A stretch of DNA of 64,000 nt from a virus. Lineage: Duplodnaviria > Caudoviricetes. The stretch lies in the IMG/VR virus record IMGVR_UViG_3300024229_000651; one strand, 5' to 3'. Under the pieces are notes generated by a model that saw nothing but the letters and a program-made list of their open reading frames with translations, was not told the DNA's origin and did not search any database. A program made the translations under genes and the position numbers. Shown in pieces: positions 14,789-26,651 of this stretch (position 1 is the first letter of the stretch; each line of letters starts with the position of its first letter).

Positions 14789-15154
14789 TTAGTCCAAGCC
14801 GCCTCTAAAGGACTCGAACTGACCTAGCACTGCACCTTCGGGAGGTTCATCTGCAATTAACATGCATGCAACTGGATCTACCTTCCACACTTTCTTAATA
14901 TTGCCTTCAGTGTCAAAAGCATCATCTTGCATGTCCATGGCTTCAGTCCATCTTCCGTATTCTACATACACCCAATCATCCTGTTTACACCAGTCAATCT
15001 CAGGACCAACTGCATGTACCTTAAACCATCTTGGGTGAATGCCTTCGTCTTTGCCAATAGTCTTTTGTATAATGATACCGGACTGCGTTTGTTGCTCGCC
15101 GAAGTTTGCATCAACACAAAGTATGTTGTCACCTATTGCTCTTAACTTAGGCAT
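14789..15154 (-). CDS. groES: GroES-like co-chaperonin
   Basis: KLRAIGDNILC...QSGIII...VHAVGP...DWVYVEYGRWTE pattern of phage cpn10. Confidence 0.75.
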   Translation of the reverse strand: MPKLRAIGDNILCVDANFGEQQTQSGIIIQKTIGKDEGIHPRWFKVHAVGPEIDWCKQDDWVYVEYGRWTEAMDMQDDAFDTEGNIKKVWKVDPVACMLIADEPPEGAVLGQFESFRGGLD

Positions 15155-15597
15155 TACTCGTCCTCGTTTGTGTAGAATGGAACCATTTGAATATCACCGT
15201 TAGGTAATTCCACTTCCTTATATCCAAGAGGTTCCATATCATCAGGAGCACCAAACTCGTCAGGCTCTACTGCTGGTGTGGGAGGAACTGCTTTTGCTTC
15301 CTCAGTTGCTCGAGCTTTTCCAGTTTTAACAACTGGCGCCATATCAGACTCAGTAGTTTGTTGCTCGTCTGGCATAGGTCCTTTTAGTGAACTTTTCTGT
15401 GCCGTGTCAGTTTTAGGATTAGCTTTATGATGCTCCCTAGCACGATCCTCGGCTTTTTGTATTACCTTACCACCTTTGCCGATAACATCGCCTCTCGCAT
15501 TCACTTTCATATTGCCTACGGCCGGTTCGTCGCCCTGCTGTGCAATAAGTGTCTGGAAGTCAATAATCTTGCCTCTGTTTGATCTATGTTGTACCAT
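15154..15597 (-). CDS. Hypothetical protein, 147 aa
   Basis: Clean ORF coupled to its neighbours by overlapping stop/start codons. Confidence 0.7.
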   Translation of the reverse strand: MVQHRSNRGKIIDFQTLIAQQGDEPAVGNMKVNARGDVIGKGGKVIQKAEDRAREHHKANPKTDTAQKSSLKGPMPDEQQTTESDMAPVVKTGKARATEEAKAVPPTPAVEPDEFGAPDDMEPLGYKEVELPNGDIQMVPFYTNEDE

Positions 15598-16110
15598 TTA
15601 ACCCTCTTTTAAAAATTCTGTTATGTCCAAGTTATATTTAATGCTGTTTATCTTATGCACACCAATTAAAAATAGAACATAACTGGCTACACTACTGCCT
15701 CTACCTACTCCCCAAACACAATTGTTAGATCTCATAGTGTCTATAATATATATCAACAACTGTAACATGGGATATAAGTTTCTGGCTTTGTATAGTGCTA
15801 ATTCCTCGTCTACTCTGTTAAGGGCCTCCAGGTTATCAGACTGGTCCTCTGCTTGGGGAATTAGCTTTCTAATATAATCCTCAACATCTATATCTCTATA
15901 ATGCTGTGGTATATTAAAAACTGCCGTTCTATCGTAATCTTCGTCTGCCAGCAAGGACATACAATTCATGTCAAGTTCTTCACAAAACTTGTTGTACTGT
16001 TGTAAGTCGCTAGATTCCACAAATTCTGTTTGTGCAATATCGGCATCTCTGTATAACAGTTCAATACCGTCAAATTCTGATGTCTGGTGTCTATTAAATT
16101 TATCTAACAT
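15598..16110 (-). CDS. dnaE: DNA polymerase III alpha (DnaE)-like fragment, 170 aa
   Basis: RVDEELALY...LQLLIYIIDTMRSNNCVWGVGRGSSVASYVLFLIGVHKI matches the DnaE GRGS palm segment; ends before the PDxDxD motif. Confidence 0.75.
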   Translation of the reverse strand: MLDKFNRHQTSEFDGIELLYRDADIAQTEFVESSDLQQYNKFCEELDMNCMSLLADEDYDRTAVFNIPQHYRDIDVEDYIRKLIPQAEDQSDNLEALNRVDEELALYKARNLYPMLQLLIYIIDTMRSNNCVWGVGRGSSVASYVLFLIGVHKINSIKYNLDITEFLKEG

Positions 16111-16116
16111 GTGCTA

Positions 16117-16145
16117 ATAATACATGATATTGCATTCATTGTCAA
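16117..16145 (-). promoter_or_regulatory. sigma70-like promoter, leaderless spacing
   Basis: TTGACA-17-TATTAT, 6 nt to the ATG. Confidence 0.7.
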
Positions 16146-16150
16146 GAAGT

Positions 16151-16936
16151 TTATACTAAAGTAGGTTTCCACTTTTGTTTATCCCTGGCGATCTTTTCAA
16201 AGTCGATTTCTATGACCTCAGCTGGAGAGTTTGTACCAAGTATATCTCTTACTTGATCTTCAATTTGCTCAAAGTCACTAGTAATATTATCTTCTGCATC
16301 ACAAATGTTTAAGCGAATTTTATCCACGTCTTCTTGTGAAAGTGCAAAATTGTCATATGTTGTAACATCATCTCGCATCCACCATGGGTTTTTCCATATA
16401 CTAAGTTCGCCCATAAATTCTTCCTGACTTGGCAAGGATTCAGGATATTCGCCGTCTAAATCAGAATATTCAAACACAGTGTTTGTGTCGTTTTCTTTTA
16501 GTACTATGTCGGTTACTATGATGCCTTCTTTGCATAGGGTGTTAAGTTTTGCATACAAGCAGAGTCCCAGTATTGTAAAATTCAATGAGGGTGTAACAAT
16601 TAACATATTTTCAGAAGCACTAAAATGCCTATTAATCATATCGGTACCATCTTTTTCATACCATATACTGTTGTCAATATAATTCTGTAAAAAATGCTCT
16701 ATCTTATGTACTGTGACATTTTGATTAAACGTGAGTTCGTCTAACTCCATTTCCGAATCAATAGCACTTGACTTCCAACAAATGTTATAAGATGCTGATT
16801 GGATAAATTCTAGTTCATCCCCTTGTTCGTTTTGTGTTGCACAAGATACACAAAAGTCTGTGCTCTTTGCTAATTTAATCGTTTTTATCATCATTGCTAT
16901 CCTTTTTGGCATAAAATGCTGCGAGGTCTTGCACAA
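16151..16936 (-). CDS. Hypothetical protein, possible degenerate QueD/T-fold
   Basis: Middle region can be aligned by eye with the QueD at 61460 but lacks the His/Cys catalytic motif. Confidence 0.4.
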   Translation of the reverse strand: MCKTSQHFMPKRIAMMIKTIKLAKSTDFCVSCATQNEQGDELEFIQSASYNICWKSSAIDSEMELDELTFNQNVTVHKIEHFLQNYIDNSIWYEKDGTDMINRHFSASENMLIVTPSLNFTILGLCLYAKLNTLCKEGIIVTDIVLKENDTNTVFEYSDLDGEYPESLPSQEEFMGELSIWKNPWWMRDDVTTYDNFALSQEDVDKIRLNICDAEDNITSDFEQIEDQVRDILGTNSPAEVIEIDFEKIARDKQKWKPTLV

Positions 16937-17213
16937 TTTTTTGACTTTCGTCTTGATAGTCTGGGTGCACTAGATCCGATGATATTGTGCCTATCTCTGT
17001 GACTGTTTCTAATTGTACTTTGTTGTCTTTGTATGTATCCATGTACATCCTTTCTTGATATTCCATGTCAACTGCTTGTTTCATAGAATATACTACATCG
17101 TATAAAGGACTGCTACCTGGTATAACAAATAGTTTTTTATCGTACTCTCTTTGCTTTTCCTGTAGTTCTTGTAATGTCATACTGGAAAAATCTAATAAAG
17201 GATGTAGACTCAT
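16875..17213 (-). CDS. Hypothetical protein, 112 aa
   Basis: Co-oriented ORF with overlapping junctions. Confidence 0.6.
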   Translation of the reverse strand: MSLHPLLDFSSMTLQELQEKQREYDKKLFVIPGSSPLYDVVYSMKQAVDMEYQERMYMDTYKDNKVQLETVTEIGTISSDLVHPDYQDESQKIVQDLAAFYAKKDSNDDKND

Positions 17214-17563
17214 AACGACAACCTGTAGTATATTGCATCGTCCGATTGTCTAAATCTAACTATGTTACCTTTGATTATAAAATCCCAAAACTCTTTCAAC
17301 CCGTGGTCTTCTGCGGCATCTCTTAATTTTTGTTGGCCGTCATTAGAACGAGTATTAAATCTACCTTGGGGTATTTGATACATGCTTCCTGAAAGATAAT
17401 GACTGTTTCCTGGTAACTGTATTTCGTTATCTTTCCAGTTTTCCCAGCACATTGTAAAATATTCTGACCGTCCAGCTACACTTTTCAAATCAATGTTGTG
17501 TTTGTGTGATATCATATCAATTAGATGATTAGGATATATGCTGTTCAGTGTTTTTAATTTCAT
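17210..17563 (-). CDS. Hypothetical protein, 117 aa
   Basis: Co-oriented ORF. Confidence 0.6.
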   Translation of the reverse strand: MKLKTLNSIYPNHLIDMISHKHNIDLKSVAGRSEYFTMCWENWKDNEIQLPGNSHYLSGSMYQIPQGRFNTRSNDGQQKLRDAAEDHGLKEFWDFIIKGNIVRFRQSDDAIYYRLSL

Positions 17564-18422
17564 ATGATACTATCGATTCTTCGTTGACACCGTTATGATT
17601 AAATCTTTGACTAATGATTATGTCTAGATTCGGCAACGGATGTTTAATTTGTTTTTCAATAACATAACTTTTGGGTTTACCGTGTATGTTAAGTCCGTAG
17701 GCTTTTAATTTTTGCTTGCTAGGTAGTGGTACATCACTATTAACAGCATTGCTGTAAAACTGGTCTATATTCGATGAATGAGATGTTTCTGATAAATTAA
17801 ATCCCATAGTCGCATAGTCTGCTAGTACAGCAAATATGTCGCTGGTTGTTATAATTAATTTCTTAAATCTAGTTTCAGAAGTATTGTTATTCCATAAAAG
17901 ATTTAATCTGTTATTAACACAGGATATAGTAACAAAGCTCTCACTTTTCTTTATTACTTTAAAGTTCAGTTTATCTGCAAATTCATTCATAACATTTACA
18001 CTGCTATTATTTACAGTAAGTCCTACAACATAGTCTAACGGTAATGTGCCTGGTACCTCTGACATACTACTATCAAAATACTCATCGTAATTTTTCCTAA
18101 ACATATCTATAGGATAGGAATACACGTTGATTCCGTAGAACTTGCAAAAGTTTAGCCCTGTTGTAGTACACTTAACACTGCCGTCTAGGCAGTTATCACT
18201 GTTGAATCCTACACCGGATAAGCCAGTATCAGTGTCTGTCCTAGTATTCACTAGCATGATACACTTTCCCGCAACCCACATTGATGCAGTTTTAGATTTT
18301 GTTATTGACAACTTCTTAAACCCAAGCTGTCGAATAACAGTGTCGCACTCTTGGTAAGAGTGCGTATCAGGGTTCACGTTATATTCTATAAAGTTTAATT
18401 CAGCCATTACTTGCTGTATCAC
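17529..18422 (-). CDS. 4-hydroxyphenylpyruvate dioxygenase (HppD)-like VOC-fold protein, metal ligands apparently lost
   Basis: Colinear resemblance to HppD: LNFIEY, LGFKKLSITKSK, LDYVVG, KLIITTSDI, DIIISQRFNHNG. Confidence 0.6.
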   Translation of the reverse strand: MIQQVMAELNFIEYNVNPDTHSYQECDTVIRQLGFKKLSITKSKTASMWVAGKCIMLVNTRTDTDTGLSGVGFNSDNCLDGSVKCTTTGLNFCKFYGINVYSYPIDMFRKNYDEYFDSSMSEVPGTLPLDYVVGLTVNNSSVNVMNEFADKLNFKVIKKSESFVTISCVNNRLNLLWNNNTSETRFKKLIITTSDIFAVLADYATMGFNLSETSHSSNIDQFYSNAVNSDVPLPSKQKLKAYGLNIHGKPKSYVIEKQIKHPLPNLDIIISQRFNHNGVNEESIVSYEIKNTEQHIS

Positions 18423-18729
18423 ACTCTCCGCAGCATTCCGGTGTGCCGCAATTTGGATGTTCTTTTATCTCAGGAAGTAAATCCTCACCATAACGGCCAC
18501 GAGTTCTGTTGCCATCGCCGTTAAGTTCGGTTAAATCCTGCTGTACATAAGTATAGTCTCTATGGCTCGCATCAACTAATTCTCTGTACTTTGTTTTGTA
18601 CTCATTATTATCAACGGCGTCTCTGTACTTGGATTTGTACAGTGATAATTCCTTTTCCAAGAACTCTACTTTTTGTTGTAGTTCTTGTACAGTCGGCTTA
18701 TCGTTAGGGTCAAATATTGCTGGTTCCAT
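18400..18729 (-). CDS. Hypothetical protein with coiled coil and Cys-rich tail
   Basis: C-terminal HPNCGTPECCGECD. Confidence 0.6.
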   Translation of the reverse strand: MEPAIFDPNDKPTVQELQQKVEFLEKELSLYKSKYRDAVDNNEYKTKYRELVDASHRDYTYVQQDLTELNGDGNRTRGRYGEDLLPEIKEHPNCGTPECCGECDTASNG

Positions 18730-19322
18730 TACATCTCTCTTTTGTTTACCACAGTGTCAACTAGACCCATTGCCAATGCTTCTTGCGAAGTCAGGAAGTT
18801 GTCCCTGTCCATTGCAGATTCAAAGTCATTGTAGGACTTTCCAGCAGTGTTATGCTTGACATAAATTTCTGTAAGCTCACGCTTGATTCTAATAATCTCT
18901 TTAGCACGAATTTCAATGTCGCTTGCTTGCCCTTGGGCGCCGCCTAATGGTTGATGGATCATGTGCCTAGCGCCTGGTAACATGTAACGTTTACCTGTTG
19001 CGCCTGACTGAGCTAATAAACTCCCCATGCTTGCTGCCTGTCCCATTACGATAGTGCTTACTTCTGGATTAATGTATTGCATAGTATCATAGATTGCCAT
19101 ACCGGCAGTTACTACTCCGCCTGGACTATTAATATAAAAGCTAATATCCGCATTGGGGTCTTCTGCTTCTAAGAATAATAGCTGTGCACAAATGCTGTTT
19201 GACACCATGTCATTTACTTCTCCATTCAAAAATATAATTCTATCTTTGAGTAGTCTGCTGTAGATGTCATAACTACGCTCACCTGCGCTAGTCTTTTCTA
19301 TTACATACGGTACGAAATTCAT
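18729..19322 (-). CDS. clpP: ATP-dependent Clp protease proteolytic subunit
   Basis: [31 protein letters not shown] (Ser), MIHQP (His), DRD (Asp); GAGG SD; ATAAATA at 19343-19349. Confidence 0.96.
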
Positions 19323-19349
19323 ATTAACCTCTTGTGGTATTGTATTTAT

Positions 19350-19706
19350 TTAAACTGCAAGCAGTTCTTTAATTTTCTTCAGTGCCATATCAAATCCTCT
19401 CATACGTCTCATTGAGATTCTTGCAGGCGTTACATACTGGAAGTCAGAAAGTTCCATGTCCTTAATACCAGCGTAGTTTGTCGATTTTAAATCGTCAATC
19501 ATTGCTGTTAATATACCCTTAACAAACATACCCGAACTGTCATGATATATCTCTCCGTCAATGAGAGCTATCCAAACATCGGTGGCACATCCGACTACTT
19601 TATTTTCGTGTAGTCTAAGGTCTGCAGGAGGATCTTCATAATCGTAATCCATCATTACTTCATAAAAATCTTCGTGAGATAATTCTATTAAAAATTCTTT
19701 GTCCAT
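19350..19706 (-). CDS. Hypothetical protein, 118 aa
   Basis: Own sigma70 promoter upstream. Confidence 0.65.
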   Translation of the reverse strand: MDKEFLIELSHEDFYEVMMDYDYEDPPADLRLHENKVVGCATDVWIALIDGEIYHDSSGMFVKGILTAMIDDLKSTNYAGIKDMELSDFQYVTPARISMRRMRGFDMALKKIKELLAV

Positions 19707-19711
19707 AGTGT

Positions 19712-19740
19712 ATTATACTTTAAAACTGTTTGATAGTCAA
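19712..19740 (-). promoter_or_regulatory. sigma70-like promoter, leaderless spacing
   Basis: TTGACT-17-TATAAT, 5 nt to the ATG. Confidence 0.72.
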
Positions 19741-19774
19741 TAGTATTTAATGACTTTTGAGGGGTAGCACAAAC

Positions 19775-19802
19775 AAAAATGGTGCGCATTTAGCGCACCA
19801 TT
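19775..19802 (-). terminator. Rho-independent terminator
   Basis: AATGGTGCGC-TAAAT-GCGCACCATT followed by a T run on the minus strand. Confidence 0.8.
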
Positions 19803-19823
19803 AGTGTAAAGCATTAAGATAAA

Positions 19824-20237
19824 TTAATTGACTTCGACGCTGTAACCAGACGCTAAGATTAAGGATTCGATCTCTGCATCGTCTGATATTTCAGAAATGC
19901 TAGTACTGTCTCCGTTGTCTGCTTTATAAAATACGCCTTCTTTGACAAACCATGCTCTGTACTTAACGCCTTCATCTGCAATTTCGTCATCGAAATGTAT
20001 AGCTTTGTAGCCATCAAAGTCTGATGGACCTGAACCATTTGGTTCTTCTGCACCAATACTATAGTCACTTGCAGTAACTTTTGCATTTAGCAGTGCGTCT
20101 ACAGCAGCCTTGTCGCTTGCGTCATTTAGTACCCAGGCACCGCTGTCACCTTGAACAAAATACGCTTTGTACTCTGCGCTATCTTCTATTAAATCTATGT
20201 GTGCTCTAAGTGCTTTTTCGTCTGAATAAGATGCCAT
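19824..20237 (-). CDS. Acidic hypothetical protein with an internal duplication
   Basis: Two halves: AHIDLIEDSAEYKAYFV and AIHFDDEIADEGVKYRAWFV. Confidence 0.7.
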   Translation of the reverse strand: MASYSDEKALRAHIDLIEDSAEYKAYFVQGDSGAWVLNDASDKAAVDALLNAKVTASDYSIGAEEPNGSGPSDFDGYKAIHFDDEIADEGVKYRAWFVKEGVFYKADNGDSTSISEISDDAEIESLILASGYSVEVN

Positions 20238-20243
20238 TTTCTA

Positions 20244-20411
20244 TTAGTCCTCTTCTTTTTGTAAAAATGTCCAGATACCATATGCTAAACCTGCCCAAGC
20301 GGCCATTTTAACAATGCCTCCAAACAAAATAATTGCTAAAGATCCAGCAACAATAATGCCGCCGTCCCAACTAGTTCTTTCCTTTAGTCTGTCTTTAACC
20401 CATGTAATCAT
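20244..20411 (-). CDS. Small membrane protein (holin-like?), 55 aa
   Basis: Start refined to MITWVKDRLKERTSWDG by an AAGGAG SD; hydrophobic segments; ATAAATA at 20429-20435. Confidence 0.65.
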   Translation of the reverse strand: MITWVKDRLKERTSWDGGIIVAGSLAIILFGGIVKMAAWAGLAYGIWTFLQKEED

Positions 20412-20427
20412 GATGGTCTCCTTAAAC

Positions 20428-21225
20428 TTATTTATCATTTTTTTCAATTTTGGATGTGTACCTAATGTAATAAGGCATGCCGTGATCCATAACAAAGTCG
20501 AAGAATTGAAACTTTGATAATGCTTTTCCTAATCCTCTGAATTGATCTTTAACTCTCTGCCATGAGGTACATGGACGTATTTGTCCGTAATAATTAATAT
20601 AGTTTAGTTCGCCAGTATGTCTAAACAACATAAATGTAGGTGGTACTTTTGGTACTATGTCGTTATTATTCACGTAACGCTTGTACGCACCAATACCACA
20701 TACATCTAGATGTTTACAGTAACCTTTCGTACCTACTCTAGGTTGTCCGAAAGTTCTCAATTCTTTAATTGGTATGCCGTCTGCTACCAATTGTTCTGCA
20801 ATAATAACTGCCATAGCACCGCCTAAACTGTGACCACAGACATAAACGTCTTGATCTTTTTTACGGCCTTGCCTAATTTCTTCGAGAATCTCAGAGTATA
20901 TTTTGTTTGCATACGTATGAAATCCTCTGTGTACTCTACCGGACACAGGGTGCTTTATTGGATATAAATCTAAGTCTGCTAGGACATCTTTTGCTTCTGT
21001 AGGTTCAGTGCCTCGACATGCTACTACTATACTGTTATCTTTTGTATAGAATATCCACGCTTCTGAACTATCATCGTCGCCACTAATATACTTTGACTTT
21101 GTACGTTGTAGTCCTATCTGCTTTTCTACATTTTTTTGATCTGCTTCGTCTAGATATGCTCTTCCTGCGAGCATTGCAAGTAAAGCAGCTTTTTGGTGTT
21201 CTGTTGCTGTTTTTAATTGCGGCAT
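20428..21225 (-). CDS. Class 3 lipase (alpha/beta hydrolase)
   Basis: VVACRGTE, VHRGF, GHSLGGA nucleophile elbow, TFGQPRVG, DIVPKVPP, terminal DH; start MPQLK with GGAG SD; ATAAATA at 21249-21255. Confidence 0.88.
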   Translation of the reverse strand: MPQLKTATEHQKAALLAMLAGRAYLDEADQKNVEKQIGLQRTKSKYISGDDDSSEAWIFYTKDNSIVVACRGTEPTEAKDVLADLDLYPIKHPVSGRVHRGFHTYANKIYSEILEEIRQGRKKDQDVYVCGHSLGGAMAVIIAEQLVADGIPIKELRTFGQPRVGTKGYCKHLDVCGIGAYKRYVNNNDIVPKVPPTFMLFRHTGELNYINYYGQIRPCTSWQRVKDQFRGLGKALSKFQFFDFVMDHGMPYYIRYTSKIEKNDK

Positions 21226-21264
21226 GTGTAATCTCCGTTTATAAGTGTTATTTATTTTAATCAT

Positions 21265-21290
21265 AAAAAAAGGCAGTTTACACTGCCTTT
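21265..21290 (-). terminator. Rho-independent terminator
   Basis: AAAGGCAGT/ACTGCCTTT stem plus a T tract after the 52-aa ORF. Confidence 0.8.
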
Positions 21291-21305
21291 AGTAATCTCA
21301 CAGAT

Positions 21306-21464
21306 CTATATTTGGGATAAGCATAGGTACATAGTAGCAATAGTCCACATAGATAGAAATGCCCAACCAACAGATTCACAAAATGAACCATCAGCACAGA
21401 CGTTGTCCGCTATATTTTTGATTACCGCCGAGATGTTACTACCCGCTTTTTTCAAGCTAGTCAT
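21306..21464 (-). CDS. Small 52-aa protein with C-terminal hydrophobic helix (not in ORF track)
   Basis: MTSLKKAGSNISAVIKNIADNVCADGSFCESVGWAFLSMWTIATMYLCLSQI; AGGAGA SD, own promoter motif and terminator. Confidence 0.72.
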   Translation of the reverse strand: MTSLKKAGSNISAVIKNIADNVCADGSFCESVGWAFLSMWTIATMYLCLSQI

Positions 21465-21605
21465 GTTTTTCTCCTGAGTCTAATATAATATTAGCACCCG
21501 CTTTCACTACCCCTCTCGGGCATAGCTCAGTGTGTTAAGACCCTCTTACGAGGCATCAGTAAACACATTGTTGTGGAAGTGCGTTGTGCGAATTACTTCC
21601 AATTG
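21465..21605 (-). ncRNA. Candidate structured 5' leader RNA (unassigned family)
   Basis: GGAAGT/ACTTCC stem; GTGTT/AACAC stem enclosing CCTC-GTAA-GAGG; GCTATGCCC-GAGA-GGGGTAGT; CTAAT/ATTAG; CTGAG/CTCAG stem overlapping the SD; two GNRA tetraloops. Confidence 0.55.
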
Positions 21606-21612
21606 TATTTAT
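21606..21612 (-). promoter_or_regulatory. Late-promoter-like ATAAATA
   Basis: GATAAATAC at the 5' end of the structured leader; TGTGTA-N7-TACACA inverted repeat just upstream (21616-21634). Confidence 0.6.
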
Positions 21613-21658
21613 CAATGTGTAACTATACTACACAGTTTATTGGTTTTTTGTTACCTTA

Positions 21659-23509
21659 TTAAACGGAAATGACGCTTTTGCCAAAGCCTTGGCGGCGCCT
21701 AAAGTAAAGACGGTTTAGGTATTCCTCACCTTTCACATTTTCACTAATGTCAAACGTGTAATTGTAAGTACCATCTTTAAAACTGTCTATGTGATTTATG
21801 AATTGAAAGAAGTTATGATTGTACTGCCTCTCATATGGATACGATGTGTCCATGCTTGTTACAAAATTATGCTGATAATCCATTAATTCTTCAAATAGGT
21901 CGCTGTCTAATTCGCACCATTCTGAACTGAATACTTTGTGCACAAAATCGAACACTATATCGCTGTTAGCGTGGAATTCTTTTTGTGCATCCCACATAAG
22001 TGTGTGCCCGCTAAAGCCATCGCTCTTGCCTGTTTCTAGGTAGTATGCTAATTTTTCTACTGTTGCTCTATTAACGTCACCAATGAATCCTTTATCATTA
22101 ATCACAGCATCGTATACTCTGTCATATGTTTCTAAGTAGGTAACGTTCTTGTATGATCTTAGAAACCTTGCAAGTGCCTGGCTCCATCCAAAGTTGTGGA
22201 AGTTATTGATCACCCAGGCATAGTTCCAACTATCGATAAATTTTTGTCTAGGCATGTACTTTGTGCCAGTAACAAGTTCTACCTTCTCTGGTATATTATC
22301 CTCTTCCTCAAAGCCACTGATATAGTTTTCCACAACAACTGTTGTTATGCCATGAGTTTCTCGTTGGGTAGGAGTATTCATTTCTGCATTCTCTAGCAAC
22401 TGTGCAAGCCAGCTTTCGATAGCATTGTGTTGTCCCGCTTCTATGACTTCGCATATACCTCTGCGCCAACTGTTAAACGTTTCCTTGGGTAATCCTAATA
22501 TTAACTCTGTGTAACTAGGGATGTTTTCCTTGTTGCACTTGTCGAAGATCATTTTTAGATCACTAATTTCCATGTTACGTCTACGGATCTCAGTGAGTAC
22601 GTCCATGTCCATGCTTTGTACACTTAATGTAAGTCCTCTATTGAACCCGCTACTAATAAACTTTTTAACAATTTCTAGGATTTCGTCACTACTGTTCTTA
22701 TACCATGTTGCATCAACAACTTTTGGGAATCCGTATTTGTCTTGCAGTTTCACAAGCTCTTCGGTGACTTCTAAATCTCTGTCAGTGAATACACCAAAGT
22801 TAGCATCTGCTATTGTAACGTAATCAACTTTATGTTCTGCCATCCATACAAGCTCTTGCAGAACCTTTGGCATAGGAAATTTTCGTATCTTTGCATACGT
22901 TAAACTGCCCCAGTCGCAGAATGTGCATGCAAACGGGCATCCTCTGTTTGTTTCTAATGTGCCATTCCAAACAACATCTGGATTATCTTTGTAAATTTTA
23001 TCAAATACACCCGTAGTGTAAGGACTAGGTATTTCTAAGTCGTCTAGTCTGCCTCCGAGATATATTTGTTTGAGTGGTTCTTTGTTATGGAAAGTTTCTA
23101 ATATTTCAACAAATGTCTCTTCGCCTTCATTAAGGGAAATAACATCCACAAAAGGATTATTATCAAAAAACTTTTCTTCTTCTGGTCGGTTGGTAACTTG
23201 TGGACCTCCGAATACAATCGTTATACTAGGATTATATTCTTTTAGCCTACGAGCTATTTCTTTGTTGTATTCCCAGTTCCACATATAGCAACTGAAGAAT
23301 GCTATATCAGAATCCTTAACTCGGCTAACTAACGTGTCTGGGTCTTCTCGCCTAAATATTAAATCGTGTAATTCAAAATTCTGATTTACTACATCAAACT
23401 GATTACCATAACTCCATAGGCATCCTACAGAATACGGTAACCAGTAGCCTGCTAACGATCCCAGGCCGATTTTAAAGTTAGGTTGTACTAACAATACTTT
23501 ATGTTTCAC
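21659..23509 (-). CDS. B12-binding radical SAM protein
   Basis: N-terminal cobalamin-binding-like domain (FSCYMWN, VFGGPQV), RGCPFACTFCDWG CxxxCxxC motif, ELILGLP. Confidence 0.88.
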   Translation of the reverse strand: MKHKVLLVQPNFKIGLGSLAGYWLPYSVGCLWSYGNQFDVVNQNFELHDLIFRREDPDTLVSRVKDSDIAFFSCYMWNWEYNKEIARRLKEYNPSITIVFGGPQVTNRPEEEKFFDNNPFVDVISLNEGEETFVEILETFHNKEPLKQIYLGGRLDDLEIPSPYTTGVFDKIYKDNPDVVWNGTLETNRGCPFACTFCDWGSLTYAKIRKFPMPKVLQELVWMAEHKVDYVTIADANFGVFTDRDLEVTEELVKLQDKYGFPKVVDATWYKNSSDEILEIVKKFISSGFNRGLTLSVQSMDMDVLTEIRRRNMEISDLKMIFDKCNKENIPSYTELILGLPKETFNSWRRGICEVIEAGQHNAIESWLAQLLENAEMNTPTQRETHGITTVVVENYISGFEEEDNIPEKVELVTGTKYMPRQKFIDSWNYAWVINNFHNFGWSQALARFLRSYKNVTYLETYDRVYDAVINDKGFIGDVNRATVEKLAYYLETGKSDGFSGHTLMWDAQKEFHANSDIVFDFVHKVFSSEWCELDSDLFEELMDYQHNFVTSMDTSYPYERQYNHNFFQFINHIDSFKDGTYNYTFDISENVKGEEYLNRLYFRRRQGFGKSVISV

Positions 23510-23530
23510 AGTACTACCTTGTTGTCAGAC

Positions 23531-23860
23531 TTACTTAGATGATGCGTCGAATACTTGTTGTACTAGAGCTTCTTTCTTTTTACGTCTGTCGATTTCAATA
23601 CCAAAAGTTCTACCTAATTCTTCCAGCTGCGATTTGGTCATTCTACCTAGTGATGCTAGGGTAACGCCCTTTTCAACTGTAACTGCAGGCTCTGCTTTTT
23701 TTGTTACTTTAGCCTTTTTCACAGCAGGCTTCTTGGGTGCTGCTTTCTTCTTGGGTGCTGCTTTCTTCTTAGGTGTTGCTTTCTCATCAGCCTTTGTTTC
23801 AGCTTTTTTTGGCTCTGCTACAGGAACACCTACGAACACACTTTGTAACCATTTAAACAT
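23531..23860 (-). CDS. Lys/Ala-rich (KKAAPK) protein with C-terminal Rho_N/HeH-like motif
   Basis: KKAAPK repeats; MTKSQLEELGRTFGIEIDRRKKKEALV. Confidence 0.7.
   Translation of the reverse strand: MFKWLQSVFVGVPVAEPKKAETKADEKATPKKKAAPKKKAAPKKPAVKKAKVTKKAEPAVTVEKGVTLASLGRMTKSQLEELGRTFGIEIDRRKKKEALVQQVFDASSK
23729..23782 (-). repeat. 3 x 18-bp coding repeat
   Basis: cttcttgggtgctgcttt twice plus one variant copy. Confidence 0.85.
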
Positions 23861-23862
23861 TA

Positions 23863-24807
23863 TTAGCTCCTATCTAGTTTGTCTAGTTGTTCAAATCTAT
23901 CTTTAAATACAGGGTGGGTTAAGTTCAACGGATTGTTTCTCTTATACGCTGTGTTGCGTATTCGATTATAAGCCAGCTGCGCTTTATTTTTAACGTCCAC
24001 ATCTTTAATCTTATTTATATATGTTCCTACTGCCTTTGGTGTTAATCTAGGCAGAGACATAAATTCAAATAGGAAAATATCAAATTCTATATATTGCATT
24101 CCTAGCTGATCAGCATCACTATTACTTATACCTAAGCCGTCTGTAGGTAGTGCACTAATTGTTGGTTCTGGAACACCCATTATACGTGCAGTCATCGGTA
24201 CTTCCCAACTCTTACTTAAACTTTGGATTGGTGCAACATCACCAACGTCACCGTGTAGTGTCCAAAAGCCTGCGGCTAGTTCACTAAAGTTGTCTGTACT
24301 ACCAACACAGCCACCTAGTTTGTGTGCTAAGTTATACAGAGTCATCATTCTTAATCTTGCCCTAATATTACCTTGACGTTGCAGTCCTCGATATGTAGTC
24401 TCTGTCTCTGCAAGGTAGTCTTTCAAAAAATCATACGGCTCGGAAAGGTCAAATTCGTATCTTTCTAACCGTAGCATATCAATTGCTTCGATACCGCGAA
24501 CTGTCTCTTCCATTTTTTGATGTATAGGTAATGTAACTCCGTGTACATGCCAGCCTGCTTCTTTGAACAGCGCAGCAGTTGTTGCGCTATCCACGCCGCC
24601 ACTCATACCAATAACTACATCGTCGAGCTTGTGATCTTTTCGATAATCACCTAGCTGTTTTACTAGCTTGAACGCTGTAGATTCTAACTTCTTTTTTGTT
24701 GGGTACACTCCTAATTTTATATGCCATTTTAATTTGTCAATAAACCAGTCGTTGATCGGACTACCGTCACCTGGAGTTATTTCCAGTATCTCATCCATTA
24801 ATGTCAT
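23863..24807 (-). CDS. nadE: NH3-dependent NAD+ synthetase
   Basis: GMSGGVDSA, GNIRARLRMMTLY, STDNFSE, GDVAPI, PTDGL. Confidence 0.9.
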   Translation of the reverse strand: MTLMDEILEITPGDGSPINDWFIDKLKWHIKLGVYPTKKKLESTAFKLVKQLGDYRKDHKLDDVVIGMSGGVDSATTAALFKEAGWHVHGVTLPIHQKMEETVRGIEAIDMLRLERYEFDLSEPYDFLKDYLAETETTYRGLQRQGNIRARLRMMTLYNLAHKLGGCVGSTDNFSELAAGFWTLHGDVGDVAPIQSLSKSWEVPMTARIMGVPEPTISALPTDGLGISNSDADQLGMQYIEFDIFLFEFMSLPRLTPKAVGTYINKIKDVDVKNKAQLAYNRIRNTAYKRNNPLNLTHPVFKDRFEQLDKLDRS

Positions 24808-25306
24808 TCTTTACCTCCTCAGGCGTTCTCCAAATAATCATTTTACCTATTTGGTCTCTCTTTATGTTTTGTGTTTTCCAGTATTTCAAATCTTTCATTA
24901 TCCCATCGGGACTCTTAAAAAATGTGCTATTCTTTTTGCGTCTACCCTTTATAAAAAATGTCATAGCATGTCCGCCTTCTGGTATCTGAACACGGTGAAA
25001 TTCATCGTGTCTTCTAAAGGCACACCAACCAGGTCCTCGCCATTCCTTTTTATCGCCAGTGATCTCGTAATATCCACCAGACAATACTAATGTAAAATAT
25101 CCCCATGGGTGGTTATGTTCGACGTCTAAGTCGCTAGATGTGAATAAGTTAAAACAAACACGGCTTTCGCTGTACAGTCCGGCTACACCCTTAACTAGTT
25201 TATTACCGAATGGATATACTCTGTGCAAGTAGTACGTGCTTGTGTAGATGTTCTGTAATGACTCAGCGCCTTTAATTTTGGCGAGCCACCAAAAAAACCT
25301 TTTCAT
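24791..25306 (-). CDS. Cupin-fold protein
   Basis: EHNHPWGYFTLVLSGGYYE...HRV; paralog of 53342-53767. Confidence 0.65.
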   Translation of the reverse strand: MKRFFWWLAKIKGAESLQNIYTSTYYLHRVYPFGNKLVKGVAGLYSESRVCFNLFTSSDLDVEHNHPWGYFTLVLSGGYYEITGDKKEWRGPGWCAFRRHDEFHRVQIPEGGHAMTFFIKGRRKKNSTFFKSPDGIMKDLKYWKTQNIKRDQIGKMIIWRTPEEVKNDING

Positions 25307-25334
25307 ATAGGATGCTCAATAATTTACGTTTTAT

Positions 25335-26651
25335 TTACTTAAAGTTTAATTGTTCCGCAACTTTTCCCGGGTCAAAGCCGCCTTTGATAAACTCAGCGAT
25401 ATTGTTATAATTGTGTGCTGAAATACGTTTAATTAAATCAACATCATATTGTTTGCCATTCTTCATATCATTAATTATTTCGCAGATATTGTTGTTTGTT
25501 TCCTCAAAGTCTTTGCCTATGTAGTTACCAAATACATCCATGTACAAATCGAAACCCCATTCTTCTAACTGTTGATATAAGATATTTGTAGTAACTAATA
25601 AAAAGGGTTTGCCTAACAGTAGCATCCTGCTTGTCTTCTCTGTTAATTGAGATATTGGAAATGGTTTGCTGTTATTATGTGAAATTCCGAATTCGATAAT
25701 TTTACTACTAGGCTCTGCAACACTTTCAACTATTACTTCCAACTTAGAATTAAAAAAGCAATGCTGATTATATGTATAGGCACCGGCGCCGCCACAATCG
25801 AAGCCTGGTGCAAGATCTCCCGGCAAATTTGGAATTGTATCTGGGAAGTTTGTGTAGTCAACTGGCTCAGTTAATATATTCTCTAAATGGTTTCGATGTT
25901 CTTCTAGCCTGTCCGAGTTCCAAGATTCGCAATAGGTTCCTATATATCCTTTATCTGCAAGGCCTTTAATTTTTAATTTATTATATAAATCAAGCCTAAA
26001 CGTTTTAAAAGTTCCTAGTGAAAGAGTATAGTCGTGGCTGAGTGTGTTCCAGTTCTCATAATAATTTAGTAATGCTGCGTTGTGTTGATCCCAGTCATGC
26101 CTTTCCCTTACATCGGATTTTTTTAATAATCTCCTTTTAAATGTTGGTACCTCTGGGTGACATTGCTGAAGCCATTGTTTACTCCAAGAATGTGATGATA
26201 AGAATTTTACATCACTGTTTACAACATTCATATCCGGTGCTGAATTATCTATTATAAACGAAACGTTATTAAAGTTGGACAAGTACTCTTTATCTAACGT
26301 GTATCGCTGCTTATGTCCCCAATACTGATCCATATACTGATAACCGGTAGGCTTGGTTTCTAAGGATACAATAATGATATCTCTGCCGCCCATAATCTCT
26401 ATGGCTTTTTCCTGATTAAGTGCATACCAAAAGAAGTCAGAGATAACAATTTTCTCATTATCCGACATTGTTAAATTTGGAAGTTGCTCAGGTGTTGCTG
26501 TTCTAACTCGAAGGTCCAGTAAGTCAGACCATGTTAAAAATATGTCCTTAGAGAGTGTTGCTTCAAAATCCCATTCTAGTTCTATTGTCCACGAAAGATC
26601 AAAAATATTTTTATCTCTTCGCCTGGGTGTTATTATTGTAGCATCAAACAT
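25335..26651 (-). CDS. Putative glycosyltransferase (GT10-like E...TEK motif)
   Basis: VIVES...QLTEKTSRMLLLGKPF...GFDLY. Confidence 0.5.
   Translation of the reverse strand: MFDATIITPRRRDKNIFDLSWTIELEWDFEATLSKDIFLTWSDLLDLRVRTATPEQLPNLTMSDNEKIVISDFFWYALNQEKAIEIMGGRDIIIVSLETKPTGYQYMDQYWGHKQRYTLDKEYLSNFNNVSFIIDNSAPDMNVVNSDVKFLSSHSWSKQWLQQCHPEVPTFKRRLLKKSDVRERHDWDQHNAALLNYYENWNTLSHDYTLSLGTFKTFRLDLYNKLKIKGLADKGYIGTYCESWNSDRLEEHRNHLENILTEPVDYTNFPDTIPNLPGDLAPGFDCGGAGAYTYNQHCFFNSKLEVIVESVAEPSSKIIEFGISHNNSKPFPISQLTEKTSRMLLLGKPFLLVTTNILYQQLEEWGFDLYMDVFGNYIGKDFEETNNNICEIINDMKNGKQYDVDLIKRISAHNYNNIAEFIKGGFDPGKVAEQLNFK

Follow-up and report, generated by a model that had tools for sequence, protein, structure and literature searches.

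A covarying RNA leader precedes a small membrane peptide gene in a clade of marine jumbo phages

The locus analyzed here raises the question of whether a run of small hairpins in a phage genome is a regulatory RNA, and if so what structure it adopts and how it might govern the 52-aa peptide encoded directly behind it. The window (the whole stretch of DNA that was analyzed, 64,000 nt) comes from one virus record of 339,794 bp that is approximately 91% complete. The size of this record, its T4-type Gp23 capsid gene, ten tRNAs, and an Hsp20 gene identify the source, by gene content, as a T4-like marine jumbo phage. Flanked by genes for a B12-binding radical-SAM protein and a class-3 lipase, the minus-strand unit of interest consists of a promoter motif (GATAAATA), a leader of approximately 140 nt, the peptide gene, and a terminator. 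Because the presence of the radical-SAM and lipase genes varies among homologous loci, the unit belongs to neither; clade-wide, it has NAD synthase and a 109-aa gene on one side and SufE/ClpP on the other. A search of the whole genome found no paralogue of the leader RNA or the peptide. An initial annotation had described five helices at this site, one of them a CUGAG/CUCAG stem closing a multi-way junction, and all of the letters that it named are found in place on the minus strand.

Host-like genes occur on the minus strand at 14789-26651 of the window (GroES-like, ClpP, SufE, lipase, B12 radical SAM, and NAD synthase), and homologous loci add a nitroreductase to this cluster. The Lys/Ala-rich 109-aa protein (23531-23860, minus strand) is kept upstream of the leader throughout the clade, and its gene adjoins the leader wherever the radical-SAM gene is missing. 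Its C-terminal part resembles Rho_N/HeH-type folds (an Atlas lead, <0.9 for named families), and on this structural comparison it is a candidate nucleic-acid binder. The lipase probably starts at an ATG at 21225 (MPQLK) rather than at 21264 on the minus strand, and a second ATAAATA occurs at 21249-21255 (minus strand), directly past the terminator. For the 83-aa ORF at 20244-20495 (minus strand), homologues call a 53-54-aa protein, with a later ATG as the likely true start; its product is a second conserved small hydrophobic protein besides the 52-aa peptide.

The motif GATAAATA (21606-21613, minus strand) resembles the T4 late TATAAATA. Its distribution agrees with the promoter function that was originally assigned to it, because 42 of its 61 copies lie outside ORFs, though non-ORF DNA makes up only 6.4% of the genome. 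TAAATA is also found upstream of all 31 distinct homologous leaders, in a collection for which TAAATA was itself a filter. The inverted repeat TGTGTA-N7-TACACA (21616-21634, minus strand), which had been listed with the leader, is present, but its center is approximately 13 bp upstream of the promoter core, so it falls outside the inferred transcript. Homologues have a dyad at about the same place with other letters, mostly TTAAC-N6-8-(G/T)TTAA. Given its position and this change of letters, the dyad is probably a DNA site for a regulator. Other GATAAATA promoters with an upstream TAAAAC...GTTTT dyad occur in G000 C1 near 281140, 281212, 297434, 321854, and 328536; these dyads resemble the dyad that homologous phages have upstream of their leaders, and promoters built in this way are possibly a regulated class. 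At the other end of the unit, a terminator scan places an intrinsic terminator at 21269-21290 (21262-21290 with its U run, minus strand) where one had been noted behind the ORF, and homologues have similar terminator-like hairpins 3' of the ORF.

The stretch is represented in seawater RNA. It is contained in 24 metatranscriptomes, many of which have only approximately one quarter of it. In three runs from three studies, RNA contigs cover 21299-21573, 21326-21590, and 21299-21556, which correspond to the leader and ORF, and omit the 300-nt flanks of both neighbors that were also in the query; a fourth run covers the whole region and may come from close to where this DNA originated. Because such contigs give no strand, ends, level, or gene ranking, and their uncovered parts are not evidence, this pattern is a weak hint of a discrete leader-peptide transcript.

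The 52-aa ORF with a hydrophobic C-terminus (21306-21464, minus strand) is a real gene, as had been supposed. Its family comprises 146 clusters at 90% identity, and dN/dS is 0.08-0.28 in five measurable pairs. The peptide has an N-terminal helix, a CxxGxxC hinge, and a hydrophobic C-terminal helix, and a structure model of moderate confidence (pLDDT 69) has helices at 3-22 and 26-51 that are hinged at the Cys pair. Three cysteines are present (23, 29, and 48), as first observed, but only two are conserved in the family. These are both Cys residues of CxxGxxC, which are highly conserved, as is the hydrophobic helix with M-Y-x-A-M-x-P at its end. Searches of Pfam, PHROG, NCBIfam, and PDB gave no family or solved relative, and the ESM Atlas gave sub-0.9 leads only. 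One locus (L182:331-468) encodes a peptide without CxxGxxC and keeps the full leader, and another (L040:4587-4760) has a three-residue deletion right behind the second Cys.

The peptide family also occurs in other marine phages without the leader. A leaderless gene lies directly after Hsp20 in L289 (1014-1934), as also in L290, L296, and L298-L300, and in L289 the genes behind it encode an IscA/HesB-like and a lysozyme-like protein. A leaderless homologue is also found directly behind family-A DNA polymerase in a different group of marine phages (L286:1501-1674, also L295 and L297). Since Fe-S assembly genes and ClpP are known in marine phages (PMC5332604), a fair guess by analogy is that the peptide has a membrane role in Fe-S/redox handling or stress.

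The first syntenic contigs were reached via close relatives of the peptide, and further loci via the radical-SAM neighbor, DNA patterns, and a peptide profile. This collection yielded 31 distinct leaders from 90 loci in related phages, and 27 leaders that remained after removal of near-duplicates are the base for the counts out of 27 given here. All 31 precede the same peptide, whose presence was a filter in the final collection, as was a GNRA loop; when the RNA model or the DNA patterns were used alone, the peptide also followed every strong match. Six records that were searched whole each have one copy of the leader. Matches of the P4 pattern (see below) in L129, L131, L149, L161, L171, L174, and L177 (1.3-2.8 kb) arise by chance near a shared AT-rich start, and these contigs look like small viral genomes unrelated to the leader.

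Comparison with Rfam 15 gave no match in the window, and homologues plus window gave only chance-level matches far below the gathering threshold, which agrees with the early remark that the leader fits no known riboswitch class. GTDB scans with the peptide or RNA pattern returned chance matches in coding DNA only, the best of them at 25.8 bits versus 43-80 for true members. The peptide profile was not found in 802 sampled genomes, a result that had no positive control and thus is not proof of absence. An exact 16-mer search produced three chance matches only, as did a strict gapped pattern, whose matches were in coding DNA. The window's peptide and lipase as queries found nothing in viral contigs, tblastn did not find the peptide in cultured phages, and leader sequence strings were not found in published papers.

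The conserved fold has four consecutive helices without a closing stem: H1, the P2/P3 arm, H5, and H6, all on the minus strand. The 5'-terminal hairpin H1 (GGAAG/CUUCC, 21574-21601) forms five core pairs in 27 of 27 leaders, and in three lineages its stem is GCAAG/CUUGC, with GG/CC to GC/GC swaps. A linker with an invariant C (21571-21574) reads ACAA in 24 leaders, TCAA in two, and ACCA in one. The outer two pairs of the P2 arm (CA-A-UGUGUU/AACACA-C-UG, 21528-21570) also form in all 27 leaders, where they occur as C-G, G-C, A-U, and G-U. This arm is 43 nt long in the window, its smallest form, versus 62-117 nt in homologues. Most homologues have an extra hairpin in the arm, P4 (AAAGUU-NAGG-AACUUU), which is missing or degenerate in the window phage and three more leaders. 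According to fold computation and pair counts with a best-helix script, which puts the P3 bulge in the wrong place in some of the long variants, the P3 helix (GAU-G-CCUC/GAGG-GUC, 21539-21557) has a bulged G in most leaders and a GUAA cap in the window's minimal variant, and 13 of the 27 leaders have a T-loop-like hairpin (URNGUAY loop) in which 4/4 stem pairs form despite differing letters. A kissing pair of 3 bp between the H1 loop (UCC) and the P4 loop (GGA) fits approximately half of the leaders and is absent in the window, and it was not taken as part of the fold.

In the alignment, a single invariant A (21527) separates P2 from H5 (21506-21526), which consists of 5 bp, a bulged G, 3 bp, and a GNRA loop. 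H5 has 99.4% of its cells paired and a two-sided change in seven of eight pairs, and its closing G-U is invariant. The GNRA loop is found in 27/27 leaders of the filtered set, and its G and A are also invariant in an alignment that was collected without the GNRA filter. A GAA-NNN linker (21500-21505 in the alignment) leads to H6 (GGGU-G-CUAAU/AUUAG-ACUC with a bulged G, 21476-21499). H6 has 90.9% of cells paired and two-sided change in five of nine pairs, and its family form is 4-6 bp, a bulged G, and CUAA/UUAG. Its 3' end is 9-14 nt upstream of the AUG and, in 24 of 27 leaders, lies at -1 to +2 nt relative to GGAG; folding energies for H6 at 37 C range from -4 to -9 kcal/mol.

It is the homologues that establish this structure. 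The window alone would not prove it, because its leader folds only modestly better than shuffles (z -1.64) and the GC richness that was first remarked upon is modest (44% in the leader versus 35.6% in non-ORF DNA and 39.3% in the genome). Family leaders are also not unusually stable (median z -1.0). Over 22 sequences (mean identity 61%), 94.9% of the H5 and H6 cells together are paired versus 74% in shuffles and <=44% for slid partners, and no shuffle equals this value. Twelve of the 17 pairs show two-sided compensatory change, and on a peptide-gene tree there are 50 same-branch changes over these 17 pairs. The mean coincidence is 0.87 for variable structure pairs versus 0.33 among the remaining column pairs.

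Four of the five helices originally described are therefore supported by conservation or covariation, but CUGAG/CUCAG is not. Its cells are paired in 78% of cases versus 79.5% in shuffles, with 477 of 500 shuffles scoring as high, and it has no same-branch changes, though its strands are complementary in the window phage. In this phage the family fold is more stable, by 2.4-3.5 kcal/mol, than the fold that contains it. CUG of the 5' half pairs with the upstream CAA in P2 and CUC of the 3' half is part of H6, so no closed multi-way junction sits over the Shine-Dalgarno (SD) sequence. The idea that this junction buries the start of the SD (AGGAG, 21471-21475, minus strand) is likewise not supported, and the site is computed to be mostly unpaired in the window phage, with an unpaired probability of 0.77-0.87 for GGAG at 10-37 C; across homologues the range is 0.25-0.99. 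One locus with a degenerate H6 (L152:12521-12583) is the only leader with its SD fully paired. A conserved anti-SD was not found among the leaders, where the best helix has 6.4 bp versus 5.9 in shuffles and its partner site is not conserved. Without a supported junction or a conserved anti-SD helix, it is unlikely that the leader works as a simple switch that base-pairs with the SD. What survives of the novel cis-regulatory RNA proposed in the initial annotation is a real structured leader with no Rfam family and its own transcription unit. As in a conserved cis-acting leader, a covarying structure lies directly upstream of one gene and behind a promoter.

The reading that we tentatively prefer, at somewhat less than an even chance, is a clade-specific leader for cis-acting translational control, with the RNA as an operator read by a protein. 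The phage promoter would produce a short monocistronic RNA of approximately 330 nt, from H1 to the terminator, whose 5' end would be shielded by H1. P2, H5, and H6 could stack end to end via A-rich linkers of 1-6 nt into a fixed shape that displays three bulged-G helices and a GNRA loop. H6 ends inside the space needed by the 30S subunit. A phage- or host-encoded protein that recognizes this shape would keep H6 folded and lower initiation; when the protein is absent, the SD would be open and the peptide made. We infer the tertiary packing, the binding protein, and the regulation itself. The conserved unpaired bases, modest stability, and fixed SD spacing argue that shape and position are selected. 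More specifically, the invariant unpaired A, bulged Gs, GAA, GNRA, and C of ACAA exceed what stability needs, and the H5/H6 covariation, the held distance from H6 to the SD, and the single copy per record before the same peptide also favor an operator. The lack of a closing stem, of an anti-SD, and of any bacterial copy in our searches makes a protein-read operator the best fit, and the first two also suit it better than a two-state riboswitch, judging by known operators of phages and ribosomal proteins. Simple self-repression is impossible because the downstream gene encodes a membrane peptide and not an RNA-binding protein. No CsrA gene was found in the genome, which counts against an operator, as do three further points: the mostly open GGAG means that repression may be weak, other phages have the peptide without any leader and so the peptide does not need it, and a fixed protein contact must tolerate the loss of P4 and the T-loop in some lineages, including that of the window.

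The mostly open SD and the lack of an anti-SD would also be expected if the fold were a constitutive scaffold that has no switch and guards an abundant late mRNA, aids ribosome loading as a standby site or enhancer, or both. H1 at the inferred 5' end fits this idea, as, weakly, does the assembly of the unit alone from three metatranscriptomes, one of them tiny. We nevertheless regard such a scaffold as unlikely, because the invariant elements distant from the 5' end (bulges, GNRA loop, and linkers) exceed what a stabilizer needs, and a T-loop domain, present in 13 of the 27 leaders, suggests a tertiary function. A ROSE-like thermometer, in which warming would loosen H6 with its U-G(bulge)-C-U motif and so expose the ribosome site, draws on the bulged G followed by CU in most H6 helices, on the full UUGCU in 4 of 27 leaders, on the H6 folding energies given above, and on the peptide gene directly after Hsp20 in other phages. 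It is decidedly unlikely, given that the H6 motif pairs with bases upstream of the SD while GGAG stays out, that the computed opening of the SD is nearly constant over 10-37 C in most leaders, and that H5 is left unexplained.

Invariant junction bases, a GNRA loop, and a T-loop-like hairpin are typical aptamer parts, and the leader could be a new metabolite or ion riboswitch class whose ligand docks H5 onto H6 and fixes H6 beside the SD. Candidate ligands from the neighborhood are iron/Fe-S, NAD, SAM, and cobalamin; the unit stays between NAD synthase and SufE/ClpP clade-wide, and CxxGxxC could bind metal. However, the neighbors are separate transcription units and thus say little about the ligand, a closing P1 and alternative pairing are lacking, large parts of the RNA are optional, and none was found in the bacterial genomes searched, so we consider this class quite unlikely. 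The same low expectation applies to its more specific form, a phage-only class with an open, P1-less architecture that would respond to a metal or a metabolite of the host, such as iron/Fe-S or NAD status, and gate a Cys-bearing membrane peptide. Least probable, and very doubtful in our judgment, is a dual-function RNA that codes for the peptide while its leader captures a host RNA-binding protein in trans, as a decoy. The P4 loop has NAGG/AGG followed by A in 22 of 27 leaders, and an AGGA loop is similar to Csr/Rsm sites; three similar bulged-G helices and a transcript that seems plentiful, the latter weakly, point the same way. Yet P4 is missing or degenerate in the window and three more leaders, the leader is never seen without the ORF, and the GGA falls outside the canonical ANGGAN register.

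Whether or not the protein-read operator proves correct, the leader is a well-supported RNA motif of the structured phage leader type that is not in Rfam or the literature searched. Strongly covarying new RNA motifs are the usual starting point for discovery of riboswitches and RNA-binding regulators, and to our knowledge very few that seem confined to phages have been described. The present motif persists throughout a widespread clade of uncultured marine jumbo phages, and seawater RNA libraries contain it. Its natural long, middle, and minimal forms, of which the window's is the smallest, allow easy structure-function tests. The leader also marks a peptide family without a name, which is retained in several unrelated groups of marine phages with its gene next to Hsp20, Fe-S assembly, or replication genes.

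Several known systems share individual features with this leader. ROSE elements require a U(U/C)GCU motif paired with the SD (PMC11342760). Like the ROSE-like elements of the ibpA type, the leader is a multi-hairpin 5' UTR whose last hairpin has a bulged G and CU paired to AG, and in other phages Hsp20 is a neighbor of the peptide gene. Unlike them, it has upstream hairpins with invariant bases and no Rfam ROSE match, and UUGCU or UCGCU occurs in only 4 of 27 leaders, the window phage not among them. Membership was rejected because H6 stands next to GGAG in 24 of 27 leaders, at the -1 to +2 nt given above, and its motif does not pair with the SD. The c-di-GMP-I riboswitch has a P1 stem, a tetraloop receptor, and a C44-G83 pair of bulged bases (PMC11705072). 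The leader resembles this RNA (GEMM-I) in its GNRA hairpin, A-rich linker, and second hairpin, with bulges in both helices, but it lacks the closing P1 and the 11-nt receptor, has no Rfam match at E 5-10, and has bulged bases G and G rather than C44-G83 (PMC11705072). This assignment was rejected as well, since the sole candidate closing stem does not covary and the distal stem of H6 is fully paired CUAA/UUAG. Fremin 2023 mined 8,495 candidate RNAs of DNA viruses from IMG/VR (PMC10690425), and the leader could be an unnamed candidate within that set.

The operators of T4 genes 32 and 43 and those of rpsO and thrS are also structures directly 5' of an open SD that are conserved with one gene, but their fold differs and the gene downstream of the present leader encodes a membrane peptide. 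Type I toxin mRNAs such as tisB and hok likewise combine a long structured 5' UTR with a small hydrophobic peptide on its own transcript; they differ in that the leader's SD is not sequestered, and in that its peptide bears a conserved CxxGxxC and is encoded within operons in other phages. No opposing ATAAATA promoter was found outside ORFs near the unit. Resemblances to hammerhead, TPP, glycine, cobalamin, NiCo, and Downstream-peptide RNAs were dropped because none had an Rfam match. Weinberg 2010 reportedly described manA, wcaG, PhotoRC, and Downstream-peptide as orphan motifs of marine phages. The leader has no Rfam match to these motifs, but like them it is a covarying RNA that precedes a gene in the intergenic DNA of marine phages, and the Downstream-peptide motif, like the leader, precedes short ORFs.
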